This document shows positions 18,189 to 22,436 of a DNA stretch of 64,000 bases, piece after piece. Both the position numbers and the translations under genes were made by a program. The notes under the pieces are model-generated. The model was not told where the DNA came from and did not search any database. It was given only the letters and a program-made list of their open reading frames with translations. Source of the stretch: Candidatus Eiseniibacteriota bacterium (GTDB lineage Bacteria > Eisenbacteria > RBG-16-71-46); NCBI GenBank assembly GCA_963707915.1, contig OY970178.1, positions 384,001-448,000 of the forward strand. Reading direction: 5' to 3'. Each line of letters opens with the position of its first letter. Position 1 is the stretch's first letter.

Positions 18189-19109
18189 ATGGAGCCACGC
18201 TACGCGATCGGCCTCGACCTGGGAGGCACGGACCTCAAGGCCGGGCTGGTGTCGAGCCGGGGTGAGGTCGCGCACTTCCAGCGCCGGCCGGCGCGCGCCG
18301 GGGAGGACGCGGACGCGCCGCTCCGGGTCATCGCTCGAGCCGTGAGCGAGCTGCGGGCCGCGGCCGGTGGCCCGCTCGTCGGCATCGGGCTCGGCTGCCC
18401 CGGCGTGATCGACCCGGCCAGCGGGGCGCTGGTGGGGCGCACGGCGCACCTGCCCCACTGGGACTCGCTGCCGCTGCGCGCGCTGCTGGCGGAGCGGCTC
18501 GGCAGCGGCCTGGTGGTCGAGAACGACGCCAACCTGGCCGCGCTGGCGGAGGACCGGGCGGGTGCGGCCCGCGGCGCGCGGGCCTCGCTCACGGTCACGG
18601 TCGGCACGGGCATCGGTTGCGGCGTGATCGTGGAGGGCCGCGTGCTGCGCGGGGCGCACGGGGGAGCCGGGGAGCTCGGCCACCTGCCACTGGACGGGCG
18701 CCACCCCTGCCGCTGCGGCGTGCCGGGCTGCGTGGAGCCCGAGTGCTCGGGCAGCGGACTCGCGGCGCGGGCCGCGGAGGCGGGGCTGGCGGCGCCGGAC
18801 GCGGCGGCGGTGTTCGCCGCGGCGTCCGCGGGAGACGCGCGCGCCACGCGGCTGATCGAGCGCATGACCGACCGCCTGGGCGCCCTCATCGCGGCGGCGG
18901 TGCAGCTGTTCGACCCGGACGTGGTCGTGGTCGGGGGCGGGGTCGCGAACGCGGGCGAGGCGCTGATGGACCCGCTGCGCGCGGCGGTGAAGCGCTACGC
19001 GCTGGAGTCGCACCACCGCGGCCTGCGCATCGCGCCCGCGGAGCTCGGCGAGCGCGCGGGCGTGGTGGGCGCCGGGCTGGCCGCGTGGGACGCGGCGCCC
19101 AGGAGCTAG
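18189..19109 (+). CDS. ROK family sugar kinase (glucokinase-like)
   Basis: Motifs GLDLGGT, ENDANLAALAE, GTGIGCG, GELGH, CRCG..GCVE. Confidence 0.93.
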   Translation: MEPRYAIGLDLGGTDLKAGLVSSRGEVAHFQRRPARAGEDADAPLRVIARAVSELRAAAGGPLVGIGLGCPGVIDPASGALVGRTAHLPHWDSLPLRALLAERLGSGLVVENDANLAALAEDRAGAARGARASLTVTVGTGIGCGVIVEGRVLRGAHGGAGELGHLPLDGRHPCRCGVPGCVEPECSGSGLAARAAEAGLAAPDAAAVFAAASAGDARATRLIERMTDRLGALIAAAVQLFDPDVVVVGGGVANAGEALMDPLRAAVKRYALESHHRGLRIAPAELGERAGVVGAGLAAWDAAPRS

Positions 19110-19208
19110 CAGCTAACGTGGACTGCGCATGACCCGCTGCTGCGAACGCGAGCCGATCGCGAGCTGACCGCGATCGGCAGCGGGCCTGTGCGTCGCTGCC
19201 GGCGAAGA

Positions 19209-19396
19209 TGTCACCCGTGCCCGGGGAGTGATCTGCTACGGGCGTCGCCAGTCGCAACCTCGATGTCGGCGATGGTGTCACCCGGGTCCCCGGTCTGCGG
19301 TGTCACCCGCGTCCCCGCTCGGGACTTCGATTCGGGCGGAAGGTGTCACCCATGTCTCCGGTCTGATCTGTTACCAATCTAGGCGGTCTGGACATC
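19209..19396 (+). repeat. Three degenerate tandem ~67-68-bp repeats resembling IS481 ends
   Basis: Units start TGTCACCC at 19209, 19276 and 19344. Each is a 51-bp pair of 25-bp subrepeats like the IS end at 20718-20769, followed by TCGAT (the third is split by the IS). Confidence 0.8.
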
Positions 19397-20769
19397 TGAA
19401 GCAACCGGGGACATGGGTGACAGGACAGACCGGGCACATGGGTAACACATTCTAGCTTCCATAACGGCGGCGACGACGTCTGCTCAAGGCAGGATCAACG
19501 ATGGGTTCGAGCCGCCCAAAGTGGCGGGGTCCGCGGTCGGTGGCCTGCTTGAGATCTAGCAGTCCGATCGGCACCCAGCCGAAGTGGACACGCCACCGGC
19601 CATCGTCGCAGGGCTCGAGTCCGACCCGTTCGCCGACGAGGCAGTTGCTCACGTACCACTGCGTGGTGCCGAAGGTGATCACGCCGTTGGGATAGGCCAC
19701 CCGGGTCTCGAAGTGTCGCGGGTACTCTGGTTCGGGGAGCTCGCGCGGGTACGAGCGAAGCGATGGGCGGTAAAGCGCGGCCGGCACCTCCTGGCCGAGC
19801 GCCTCGTGCGGCCGCTCCTGGTTGTACTCCGTCTGGAAGCGATCGAACGCGCGTTGCTGGGCGCTGAAGCTCGAGCGCGGCGGTCTGGCGGTCTCGGCTT
19901 TCAAGGTGCGATGCATGCGCTCGTGGCGCCCGTTCTGTTCGGGACGACCTGGCATGATGCGTTCGGGACGGATCCCGAGTCGGATCCACCAGACCGAGAG
20001 ACGCGACAGTCCGCCCGGGGCGAGCGTCGAGAACGGCGGCCCGTTATCGGTGCGGATCGCCCTCGGCAAGCCGTATTCGGTGAAAGCGGACTCGAAGACG
20101 CGCCGGACATGCTGAGTGAGCGGACGACGCAGGGCGCGGCAGCGAAGGAGCAGGCGACTGTATCCATCGCTGATGGTCAGCGGATGACAGCGTTCACCCC
20201 GGCGACCCAGCGGGAAGTGGCCCTTGAAGTCGGCACACCAGACGGCGTTGGGTGCGTCGTACTGCCGCAGCCGGTCCCCGTACGGTGAGCTGCGCCGGAC
20301 TCGCCGGCGCGGGCGAACCAGTCCGCTGCGCCTCAGGATGTCGCCGATCGTGCTGGCCGCCGGGAGCGCGACCGGCGGCCGTTCCCGCTTCAGCACCACC
20401 CGCACCTTGCGTGGTCCCCAACGCGGATGGCGACGTCGGATCGCGACGATCGCCTGCACGAGGTCGGCGGCGACGGCGTTGGGATGAGAGTGCGGCGCGC
20501 GTGAGATCTCCTCGAGGGCCGCGACCCCGTCGGCCTCATAACGACGGACCCACTTGTACCCCGTCTTCCGGCTGACCCCGAAGTCGTGGCACAAGTCGGA
20601 GAAGCTGGCCTCCGCCTGCAGGTAGGCGGCAATGAACTTCACTCGTTCAGACATCCAGTCGGTCCTCGCCCAGGGCATCGTGTGGTCCTCCTCGAACCAC
20701 CCATGATGCCCGCGGGCTGTAACCCATGTCCCCGGTCTGATCTGTTACCAGTGTGCCCGGTCTGAACCA
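19397..20769 (-). mobile_element. IS481-family insertion sequence (copy 1)
   Basis: TG...CA termini with ~51-bp inverted ends built from 25-bp subrepeats (consensus TGTYACCCATGTSCCCGGT). Short duplication of TC, or up to CATC depending on the end assignment. Confidence 0.9.
19452..20678 (-). CDS. IS481-family DDE transposase
   Basis: MPW start, HTH GVSRKTGYKW, motifs WCADFKG, RTDNGPPF, QNGRHERMHRTLK, YNQERPHEAL. Confidence 0.96.
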   Translation of the reverse strand: MPWARTDWMSERVKFIAAYLQAEASFSDLCHDFGVSRKTGYKWVRRYEADGVAALEEISRAPHSHPNAVAADLVQAIVAIRRRHPRWGPRKVRVVLKRERPPVALPAASTIGDILRRSGLVRPRRRVRRSSPYGDRLRQYDAPNAVWCADFKGHFPLGRRGERCHPLTISDGYSRLLLRCRALRRPLTQHVRRVFESAFTEYGLPRAIRTDNGPPFSTLAPGGLSRLSVWWIRLGIRPERIMPGRPEQNGRHERMHRTLKAETARPPRSSFSAQQRAFDRFQTEYNQERPHEALGQEVPAALYRPSLRSYPRELPEPEYPRHFETRVAYPNGVITFGTTQWYVSNCLVGERVGLEPCDDGRWRVHFGWVPIGLLDLKQATDRGPRHFGRLEPIVDPALSRRRRRRYGS

Positions 20770-21003
20770 TCGATTTCGCTTGACAGGTGTCGGGGCTCGC
20801 GATGCGCCACGACTGCCGGGCTGTTCGCGCGGCTCGCAGGAAGTCGCAGGTCGAGCGGAGTACGCATCGCGGCCGCGATCGTGAACGCGTTCTCCCGCCG
20901 AGCCTCGTTGTGCGACCTGCCGGGCGCTGCGAGAGCTGAAGACCGGCATGATATGAATGGCCTCGCACTGCCCCCGTGACCCGCCCCCGCGCGGAGTCAC
21001 ACG

Positions 21004-22293
21004 ATGGATCGCTACTCCCTGGCCCACGTTCCCGACCCGGTCCTGCTGCGCGAACTGCGCTCGCTCGTCGCCCAGGACCGCGTCACCACCGCCCTGCTCG
21101 TCGCCCACCTCGGCGAGGTCGATGCCCGGCGGCTCTACGCCGAAGCCGGCTACCCCTCGATGTTCGCCTGGTGCGTGGAGCGGTTGGGCTTCTCCGAGGA
21201 CAGCGCCTACAAGCGCATCCGGGCGGCGCGGACCGCCCGCGAGTTCCCGGACGTCCACGCGATGCTGGCCGACGGCCGGCTGCACCTCGGTGGCGTGGTC
21301 GCGCTGGCGCCCTGCCTGACCGCCGCGAATGCGGGGGAGTTGCTGGCCGCCGCGGCGCACCGGAGCCGCGCGGGCATCGAGCAGATGCTGGCCGAGCGGT
21401 TCCCGCGGCCCGACCTGCCGGGCCTGATCCAGCCCGTACCCCAGCCGCCGATTAGTACGGATGTTCAGTGTGATCAAATTTCACTGGCCCCGGGGCCAGT
21501 GATTTCCAGTCCTGCTAAACACGAGGCCGCATCTCCCGCATTCGGTGAGCGCCAGGTCACCCCTCTCGCTCCGCAACGCTTCGCCGTGCAATTCACCATG
21601 GACCAGGAAGCGCACGCCGACCTGCTCTACGCCCAGGCCCTGCTCGGGCACGCGGTGCCCTCCGGCGACCCGGCCGCGGTGTTCGCCCGCGCGCTGAAGA
21701 CCCTGATTGCGCAGCTCGAGCAGCGCAAGTTCGCGAAGACCGACCGGCCCCGCCGCTGCCGCGCCAGCGACGACCCGCGGCACGTCCCCGCGGAGGTGAA
21801 GCGCGCGGTGTGGGAGCGTGACGGTGGCCGCTGCACGTTCGTGGGCACCGGCGGGCATCGCTGCGAGGCGCGCACGCGGCTCGAGTACGACCACGTCGAG
21901 CCGGTGGCCGACGGCGGGCGCGCGACGGTGCGCGGCCTGCGGCTGCGCTGCCGGGCGCACAACCAGTACGAAGCCGAGCGACACTTCGGGCGCGACTTCA
22001 TGGCGGCCAGGCGGGAGAGCGGCGGACGTGGGTCGGCTCCGAACGGGGCCGAGCGACACGGTGGGCGCGACTTCATGGCGGCCAGGCGGGAGCGGAGCGG
22101 GAAGCCCGGGCTGCCTTCGCACCTGGCGGAGCTGGTGCCCTGGCTGCGAACGCTCGGGCTCCGCGCGGAGGAAGCGCACCGGGTCGCGGAGAACTGCGGC
22201 GCCCCACCCGACGCCCCGCTCGAGGAACGCGTGCGCTACGCGCTGCGCTGCTACGGCGGTCCGCGCGGCGCGGTCACACGTCCCGCGGCCTGA
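21004..22293 (+). CDS. HNH endonuclease domain protein (DUF222-like multicopy family)
   Basis: N-terminal LVAHLGEVDARRLY..GYPSMF. C-terminal RHVPAEVKRAVWERDGGRCTF...C...LEYDHVEP...GG...LRLRCRAHN. Confidence 0.88.
   Translation: MDRYSLAHVPDPVLLRELRSLVAQDRVTTALLVAHLGEVDARRLYAEAGYPSMFAWCVERLGFSEDSAYKRIRAARTAREFPDVHAMLADGRLHLGGVVALAPCLTAANAGELLAAAAHRSRAGIEQMLAERFPRPDLPGLIQPVPQPPISTDVQCDQISLAPGPVISSPAKHEAASPAFGERQVTPLAPQRFAVQFTMDQEAHADLLYAQALLGHAVPSGDPAAVFARALKTLIAQLEQRKFAKTDRPRRCRASDDPRHVPAEVKRAVWERDGGRCTFVGTGGHRCEARTRLEYDHVEPVADGGRATVRGLRLRCRAHNQYEAERHFGRDFMAARRESGGRGSAPNGAERHGGRDFMAARRERSGKPGLPSHLAELVPWLRTLGLRAEEAHRVAENCGAPPDAPLEERVRYALRCYGGPRGAVTRPAA
21973..22092 (+). repeat. 45-bp in-frame direct repeat inside the HNH gene
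   Basis: 21973-22017 and 22048-22092 are identical except TTC/GGT, encoding AERH[F/G]GRDFMAARRE. Confidence 0.9.
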
Positions 22294-22323
22294 GCGAGGC
22301 GGATGCGCGGCGGCGTGAGCGGG

Positions 22324-22436
22324 CTGGAGGCCCGGCAGCACGGGAGCCGCGTGGCCCGCACGACCCGAACCCGTGACGCGTCCGACTCGAACCTCCGGAT
22401 CGTGCGCGCCGCGCTTGCGACTACCCGGAAAGGCTC
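22324..22436 (+). mobile_element. Solo right-end remnant of an IS1182-like element
   Basis: Reverse complement reads CTAG-GAGCC-N11-TCGCAAGCGCGGCGCGCACGATCC, matching 55335-55380. TGGAGGCCCG is also shared with the 55.5-kb remnant. Confidence 0.65.

Follow-up and report, generated by a model that had tools for sequence, protein, structure and literature searches.

Solo ends of a site-specific IS481-family insertion sequence as the probable source of a repeat array upstream of an HNH gene in a Candidatus Eiseniibacteriota genome

The DNA considered here, hereafter called the window, is a stretch of 64,000 nucleotides from a Candidatus Eiseniibacteriota genome (GenBank assembly GCA_963707915.1, contig OY970178.1, positions 384,001 to 448,000), in which three short tandem repeats stand beside an intact insertion sequence (IS) of the IS481 family and upstream of a gene of the HNH family. 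The results of our analysis indicate that this repeat array is probably a stack of dead ends from one IS481-family element, specific for both site and orientation, whose address is a motif in the leader of the HNH gene. The repeats are best read as the record of earlier visits to that address, which sits in the leader motif.

The repeat array and its insertion sequence

A repeat search recovered four in-register copies of 50 nt at window positions 19209, 19276, 19344 and 20718, with spacings of 67, 68 and 1374. The first three form the array and the last belongs to the IS end that adjoins the start codon of the transposase gene (20718 to 20768, plus strand), the sequence of which is copied in the units. 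An earlier inspection of the letters, the sequence-only reading, had described three units with a period of 67-68 that resemble a two-subrepeat IS end, TCGAT linkers following units 1 and 2, and an intact IS481-family element abutting the third unit; all of these are borne out. The units are 50-51 bp long and were compared over 50 positions, at which unit 1 (19209 to 19259), unit 2 (19276 to 19326) and unit 3 (19344 to 19393, all on the plus strand) match the IS end at 20718-20767 in 34, 37 and 42 instances, the likeness growing toward the IS. The units match one another at only 31-34 of the 50 positions, each having the IS end, not another unit, as its closest match, and the identity to the copy at 19344 amounts to 62%, 68% and 84% for those at 19209, 19276 and 20718, respectively. 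Unit 1 is the oldest-looking remnant of the end adjoining the transposase start codon, with 17 of 23 positions kept in its first subrepeat and the second badly decayed. Unit 2 retains both subrepeats (20/23 and 18/23), and unit 3 is the best-kept remnant (22/23 and 17/23), its tip abutting the target duplication of the resident IS. The first linker, TCGATGTCGGCGATGG (19260 to 19275, plus strand), resembles the IS interior just inside the end (cf. the interior stretches found in relatives), and the second, TCGATTCGGGCGGAAGG (19327 to 19343, plus strand), is close to the piece of IS interior found ahead of an end copy in L013, a locus of a relative.

We then scanned the whole 3.62-Mb genome with a 23-nt matrix of the subrepeat and found 53 places matching at 17 or more of the 23 positions. 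Twenty of these lie in the IS ends of five copies, five within the 188 bp of the array, four in remnants beside two other IS copies and one in an IS relic; the remaining 23 are scattered, 20 of them at the bare threshold. Five of 53 matches inside 188 bp place the array far beyond chance. The same scan revealed no IS-free array elsewhere in this genome, only the relic near 2,075,071. Tandem Repeats Finder did not report the array, because its copies are too diverged. Unit 3 and the abutting IS end together make an imperfect palindrome with 49-nt arms (19339-19452; DNA fold -25.9 kcal/mol, z -4.5), which may add to local instability. Two matches to microRNA families in Rfam at 19337-19453, far below the gathering scores, reflect this palindrome and not an RNA gene.

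The intact IS measures 1372 bp (19397 to 20768, minus strand; BLAST), with terminal inverted repeats of 44 nt that are 82% complementary and ends of 51 bp containing two 23-nt subrepeats each; the end adjoining the transposase stop codon (19397 to 19447, plus strand) is the one paired with unit 3 in the palindrome. Target duplications of the sequence ATC lie at 19394 to 19396 and 20769 to 20771. The element had previously been placed at 19397-20769 plus a TC; the bounds given here are preferred because all five copies in the genome then show perfect 3-bp duplications. Its only open reading frame (ORF), without the frameshifted two-ORF layout of IS3, encodes a transposase of 408 amino acids (19452 to 20678, minus strand) with helix-turn-helix domains and an rve DDE core (Pfam matches: rve, rve_3, HTH_32, LZ_Tnp_IS481). 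The protein scores 229 bits against the NCBIfam IS481 model NF033577 (cut-off 224, model positions 2-283 of 284) and 119 against the IS3 model, below its cut-off of 160. By model score, single ORF, inverted repeats and short duplication, the element is a member of the IS481 family.

Two arrangements in public peat metagenomes touch on this element. One contig joins position 20768 back to 19397 with three letters between them; as it follows the IS interior for only 42 nt from the end, it represents another remnant-plus-IS arrangement and not proof of a circle. In the other, 19427-19448 is joined straight to 20718-20768, forming a derivative of about 100 bp like a miniature inverted-repeat transposable element, the flanks of which are unlike the HNH leader. 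Four public runs aligned to the window, all consisting of contigs, left the flanks 19000-19354 and 20846-20987 uncovered, to which no weight attaches, and the small word shares of runs X2-X20 do not count here as a sign of habitat.

Insertion sites before HNH genes

The gene downstream of the array (21004 to 22293, plus strand) encodes an HNH-family protein of 429 amino acids with a weak Pfam HNH match at residues 287-318, and Atlas clusters matching it are named HNH endonuclease family protein (scores 0.97-0.98). It is one of six paralogues sharing 54-72% amino acid identity in this genome, which consists of one contig of 72% G+C. The IS is present in five copies (c1 to c5) that are 100% identical, the fifth differing only at base 1373 (BLAST), and their duplications (ATC, ACC, AAC, ACC and GGT) are all perfect. 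All five lie about 235 bp upstream of different HNH paralogues, the distance to the start at 21004 being confirmed as 235 bp, in one orientation and with the transposase gene divergent from the HNH gene, the start-codon-side end always facing the latter. Four of the five occupy the same nucleotide, immediately 5' of GATTYC-N-CTTGACAG. Since identical IS copies, each with its own duplication, sit beside HNH neighbours as diverged as 54-72%, they represent recent independent insertions into old, pre-existing sites. Before insertion a remnant tip stood at the landing point of c1, c2 and c4, with 3 bp between tip and IS; the c2 site has two stacked units and the c4 remnant only about 18 nt. The c5 site carries on its left a 24-nt remnant of the other, not leader-side, IS end, yet the insertion stands at the usual nucleotide ahead of GATTCC. 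Neither IS nor end-like sequence is present at the sixth paralogue.

The conserved leader of about 232 nt that precedes the HNH gene (20772 to 21003, plus strand) is 82-84% identical over 230 nt in two paralogues and contains a TG-N-TATGAA box at about 20949-20957. Its 5' edge is the target motif (20772 to 20795, plus strand), composed of GATTTCGC, then TTGACA (20780-20785) and then a degenerate second repeat similar to GATTTCG. Aligned on TTGAC, 21 occupied and 42 unoccupied sites alike give the consensus (A/C)(A/C)GA(A/T)TT-NN-CTTGAC-R-N-G-N-TTTCG, which is often a direct repeat of GATTTCGC on either side of TTGACA. In aligned HNH leaders conservation begins about 10 nt before TTGAC, so that in Eisenbacteria the insertion point of the IS coincides with the 5' edge of the conserved part of the HNH unit; in G041, a genome considered below, the conserved unit reaches further left than this. 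A scan of 19100-21100 with the sigma-70 consensus found no promoter and no -10 partner for TTGACA, and no Rfam family matches the leader of about 230 nt. The conserved islands of the leaders across genera and phyla (20772-21003, L006-L052, L132-L211) comprise three elements: a stretch GCCCCCGCG...CCCGCCCCCGCGGAG, a box CGAAAA-N6-TG-N-TAT-N-AA situated some 45 nt ahead of the start codon, and the GATTTCGC direct repeat flanking TTGACA.

Of 41 genomes searched at the DNA level, namely this one and 40 relatives (Candidatus Eisenbacteria by their record titles), 25 gave matches, and many of the matches span only the last 50-140 bp of the IS together with the first bases of the leader. The unpublished genome G026, whose locus L010 occurs only in the BLAST tables, carries no part of the argument. 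An HNH homologue was present in 26 of the 31 loci around IS-like DNA matches, a transposase fragment of any kind in only six. Under a strict definition of the tip there were 14 sites, 12 with an HNH gene downstream and two that run off the contig. The remnants hold variable amounts of the IS interior, at most about 800 bp and with the first codons of the transposase gene included, their left limits running from 19981 to 20739 in window-equivalent coordinates, and all end at the same junction. A sample of 84 distinct HNH upstream regions contained 31 with a tip motif, at a distance to TTGAC of 11 nt in 21 cases, 10 in four, 8 in three, and 9, 6 and 18 once each.

Five loci (L013, L006, L015, L002 and L024) contain two to four units stacked together. 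In L013 the linkers measure 25 and 11 nt, in L024 10 nt, in L015 about 76 nt and in L002 about 750 nt; L006 includes two 104-bp units differing at one base. In the stacks examined the older unit has a full tip and the next unit begins within a few bases, which points to events starting at the edge of the new IS. One of the origins suggested by the sequence-only reading, a scar of repeated insertion and deletion, gains support from these remnants, which share one junction, vary in length and are sometimes stacked, and from the units of the array being nearest to the IS end. The suggested link between a repeat array and a nuclease, offered there as speculative, is the principal result as regards position upstream of HNH genes (five of five copies and 12 of 12 assessable remnants); it fails as an association of repeats with a nuclease, being instead one of an IS with its target.

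We searched five relatives (G004, G015, G019, G020 and G021) for the transposase, and none of them holds it: no match at E 1e-10 came from G015, G019 or G020, and the only relatives in G004 and G021 share 29-36% identity. Among 20 further HNH upstream regions from these genomes, one of the 19 readable ones scores at least 16/23, and a few more show a decayed tip by eye only. A further sample was picked by HNH similarity alone, nearly all from metagenome-assembled genomes (MAGs) titled Candidatus Eisenbacteria. Of its 56 loci with enough upstream sequence, 48 have TTGAC at -300 to -170, ten a tip motif and none a transposase. The end remnants are not part of the HNH unit, most HNH loci (46 of 56) having no remnant.

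We also checked 79 loci encoding transposase relatives for HNH homologues, which stand beside the IS only in the closest ones, namely L053 (69% amino acid identity, an Acidobacteriota MAG by title) and L055 (64%, Polyangiaceae); the limitation to the closest relatives is a statement from identity ranks. In L053, L055 and L054 (63%, a Pseudomonadota MAG) the end tip is followed by a spacer of 10-11 nt and a TTGAC or TGGAC box, then by about 190 nt, a TG-N-TAT-type box and an HNH-family ORF. The same IS-to-HNH junction is hence found with the three closest transposase relatives in MAGs of Acidobacteriota, Myxococcota and Pseudomonadota. Independent insertions at the same position and in the same orientation of a conserved motif, as expected of a site-specific element, are found for all five copies of this genome and for L053-L055, and 21 of the 31 remnant tips agree with them in standing 11 nt before TTGAC. 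A more distant IS481-family cousin (51% amino acid identity) with similar two-subrepeat ends lies inside an HNH-like ORF, just before the HNH motif, in a deltaproteobacterial MAG (L083:2380-3800).

The 8.1-Mb genome of L053, designated G041, again has an IS of 1372 bp, in copies 99.7-100% identical, with duplications CAC, AAT and AAA. Six of its eight transposase matches are divergent to HNH paralogues, three directly and three with another insertion of 2-2.4 kb between. The related IS occurs there at sites without end-like sequence, and four empty paralogous sites show the target uninterrupted and equally free of end-like sequence. The extra insertions interrupt the HNH-linked IS copies, or part them from TTGACA (L217, L218/L235, L219/L238), in L217 only 8 nt beyond the IS tip, and hint at a second element using the same neighbourhood. 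Another copy at the usual HNH site (L243, G041:C1 about 1,521,900) has an internal deletion of about 950 bp and retains the stop-side part together with the last 36 nt of the leader-side end, possibly an intermediate between a full copy and a solo end.

The whole block from 19110 to 22436 (a 60-nt element, the array, the IS, the leader, the HNH gene and a 143-nt tail) is missing from the corresponding junction in three same-genus genomes, in which the ROK and MiaB-like genes meet with their stop codons overlapping in CTAG, as deduced from protein-level synteny; here CTAG is found at both edges of the block. It follows that the HNH unit, scars included, is an insertion too, and it looks mobile in its own right. 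Near the left edge, 19113-19172 holds an element of about 55-60 nt containing ATGACCCGCTGCTGCGAACG, with a second copy in this genome at 3,337,648-3,337,698 and others in the same-genus genomes G004, G005 and G007, none of these having an HNH gene or transposase nearby; a very short ORF and a regulatory element are both conceivable. An attempt at DNA-level synteny through a 55-nt match in this element (L223-L225) led to unrelated loci with no HNH gene or transposase, and protein-level synteny was used instead. The block edges were also considered as decayed IS ends and rejected, since their local alignment scores (16 and 14) fall within the null of random genome segments (fractions 0.45 and 0.83 of the nulls).

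Origin of the array and competing explanations

We propose that the IS481-family element lands immediately 5' of the motif, at the boundary between NNN and GA(A/T)TT-NN-CTTGAC that heads the leader of about 235 nt in the multicopy HNH unit, presumably by copy-out/paste-in transposition and with the transposase recognizing the motif directly. Because the address is situated on the leader side, a new copy would always come to lie between the older tip and the leader, shifting older material to the left. If its body were then lost and the leader-proximal end kept, one unit would be added, and repeated cycles would yield head-to-tail remnants with the youngest nearest to the leader, the present IS being the latest visitor at the locus. 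As to how the body is lost, we favour a route in which an old tip, the 3-bp spacer and the end of a new IS would mimic an active end-to-end junction, and intramolecular events made by the transposase would then remove DNA inward from the edge of the IS, in the manner described for IS30. For this array, slippage between CGAT microhomologies 67 bp apart might have acted instead, fitting the equal linkers of 16-17 nt and the recurring tip-N-CGAT junction equally well. The unequal linkers in relatives require the junction-deletion route there, and the near-identical 104-bp units of L006 fit slippage.

Slippage could in principle account for the array altogether, a single remnant with its 16-nt inner flank having been duplicated in tandem as a minisatellite that later decayed, in which case only one old insertion would be recorded. 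The equal linkers agree with such an origin, as do the two L006 units differing at one base and the fact that every junction of the array reads tip, one or two bases and then CGAT, a junction shared by copy c2. The explanation is nevertheless quite improbable, for the IS end is a closer match to every unit than any neighbouring unit is, the likeness rising toward the IS, and the linkers of the stacks in L013, L015, L002 and L024 are unequal. A composite element, in which the IS and the HNH unit travel as one or IS ends serve as homing sites for the HNH unit, so that the end copies belong to a larger transposon, could draw on the conservation of the IS-to-HNH junction over four phylum-level labels and on the block 19110-22436 being an insertion between CTAG sequences relative to three same-genus genomes. 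We regard it as the most improbable of the explanations weighed here, scarcely credible given that the IS copies are identical beside HNH neighbours of 54-72% identity, that 3-bp duplications flank the IS alone, that 46 of 56 HNH loci have no trace of the IS, that the block edges resemble IS ends no more than random genome segments do, and that the matrix scan found no subrepeat downstream of any HNH paralogue.

Somewhat less improbable, and still unlikely, is that the transposase is drawn to sequences resembling its own ends, so that the array attracts the IS as a landing pad and the HNH gene is a bystander inheriting the pad. In its favour, four of the five insertions in this genome stand against an end-like remnant, tip and IS being 3 bp apart as in an end-to-end junction, and for c1, c2 and c4 this spacer equals the duplication length. 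Copy c3 is placed within the tip of a nearly identical remnant, and the one paralogue free of remnants is unoccupied. The peat contig shows one end, three letters and the other end, and IS30 inserts beside its own inverted repeats (PMC9333248). Against a directing role of end-like sequence stand the IS copies of G041 at remnant-free sites, matching its empty paralogues, and c5, where the other IS end lies on the left and the position is the same. Moreover, the position of insertion is fixed relative to TTGAC, and the first insertion at any HNH locus could not have used a remnant. The landing pad or decoy of the sequence-only reading is accordingly unneeded, as remnant-free sites, occupied and empty, exist in G041 and the position of c5 is kept with no abutting copy of that end.

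Several observations weigh against the interpretation of the array as stacked ends of a site-specific IS. Copy c3 lies 4 bp further left than the others, within the tip of a remnant 43/44 identical to the IS, which looks like attraction to an end, and the only empty HNH site in this genome is also the only remnant-free one (n=6), a helping role of remnants being possible. The linkers are 16-17 nt here and beside copy c2 and all start with TCGAT, a regularity that random loss of the IS body would not produce; it fits tandem duplication or a preferred internal break. A decayed relic of the same IS (genome C1:2,075,068-2,075,431), comprising the stop-side end and about 115 codons of the transposase C-terminus (39% amino acid and 71% DNA identity), has no HNH homologue nearby, and in L022 a remnant and target motif are followed by no HNH gene. 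TTGACA was not called as a -35 box, for want of a matching -10 element. Finally, transposition, circle formation and DNA binding by this element are putative.

A broader proposal, which we advance only tentatively and consider somewhat doubtful, is that this IS481-family lineage keeps a true asymmetric attachment site of about 20 bp at the 5' edge of a mobile multicopy HNH unit across at least four phylum-level groups. The site might be read directly or through a bound protein, possibly the N-terminal domain of the HNH protein; the IS would then be a hyperparasite or a partner of another selfish element, and the solo ends would result from self-inflicted junction deletions.

Comparison with known systems

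Most DDE insertion sequences choose their targets loosely, and strict addresses are known mainly with a selector protein or an RNA guide. Here a one-gene element of 1.4 kb strikes one nucleotide position in one orientation before a gene family, across Eisenbacteria, Acidobacteriota, Myxococcota and Pseudomonadota. This raises the questions of how a plain transposase reads a long asymmetric site, why that site belongs to a repeated HNH unit and whether old ends beside a new copy trigger self-deletion. The stacked ends would allow the history of invasions at one locus to be read like a fossil record, and in annotation such arrays upstream of HNH genes should not be taken for regulatory repeats or CRISPR-like arrays. 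If the proposed targeting is true, a DDE transposase that finds its address in sequence by protein alone would offer a natural template for targeted insertion. A full-text literature search returned no report of an IS481-family lineage addressed to HNH-gene leaders, nor of stacked solo ends there; what appears to be new is this lineage at HNH leaders, and the kinds of targeted transposition that it resembles are known.

IS481 itself has a preference for NCTAGN targets, and the present lineage differs from its family in using one long asymmetric site in one orientation and in its 51-bp two-subrepeat ends. It shares with the family (type: IS481 of Bordetella) the single-ORF DDE transposase, the terminal inverted repeats and a duplication within the family range, given as 2-15 bp in PMC10045372; the 3 bp found here and in G041 depart from the 6 bp that the same paper reports for most members.

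The positioning of old and new ends has its closest parallels in elements that target their own ends. IS911, a copy-out/paste-in element of the IS3 family, reportedly inserts beside its inverted repeats, and to our knowledge no HNH gene or promoter-edge target is involved. According to PMC9333248, IS30 targets either hot spots or its own inverted repeats, in keeping with the general statement of the sequence-only reading that copy-out elements can insert beside their own ends, and intramolecular deletions driven by its junctions begin exactly at an end. Common to IS30 and our IS are a fixed hot-spot target and insertions abutting a copy of the element's own end with a spacer of the duplication length. 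IS30 belongs to a different family and has a 2-bp spacer, its junction activity has here a presumed counterpart, and the consulted portion of PMC9333248 does not describe stacked solo ends at one chromosomal site.

Tn7 at attTn7, insertion sequences targeting repetitive extragenic palindromic (REP) sequences and the IS110/IS1111 elements likewise insert independently at a single position and orientation within a conserved sequence, leaving the neighbouring gene intact. Tn7 and the REP-targeting elements reach their address via a separate target-selector protein or a guide RNA. The IS110/IS1111 elements use a guide (seekRNA), whereas in the element described here a single DDE protein is accompanied by no more than about 90 nt of non-coding DNA. 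Unlike the targets of all these systems, moreover, the one used here belongs to another repeated and apparently mobile gene unit.

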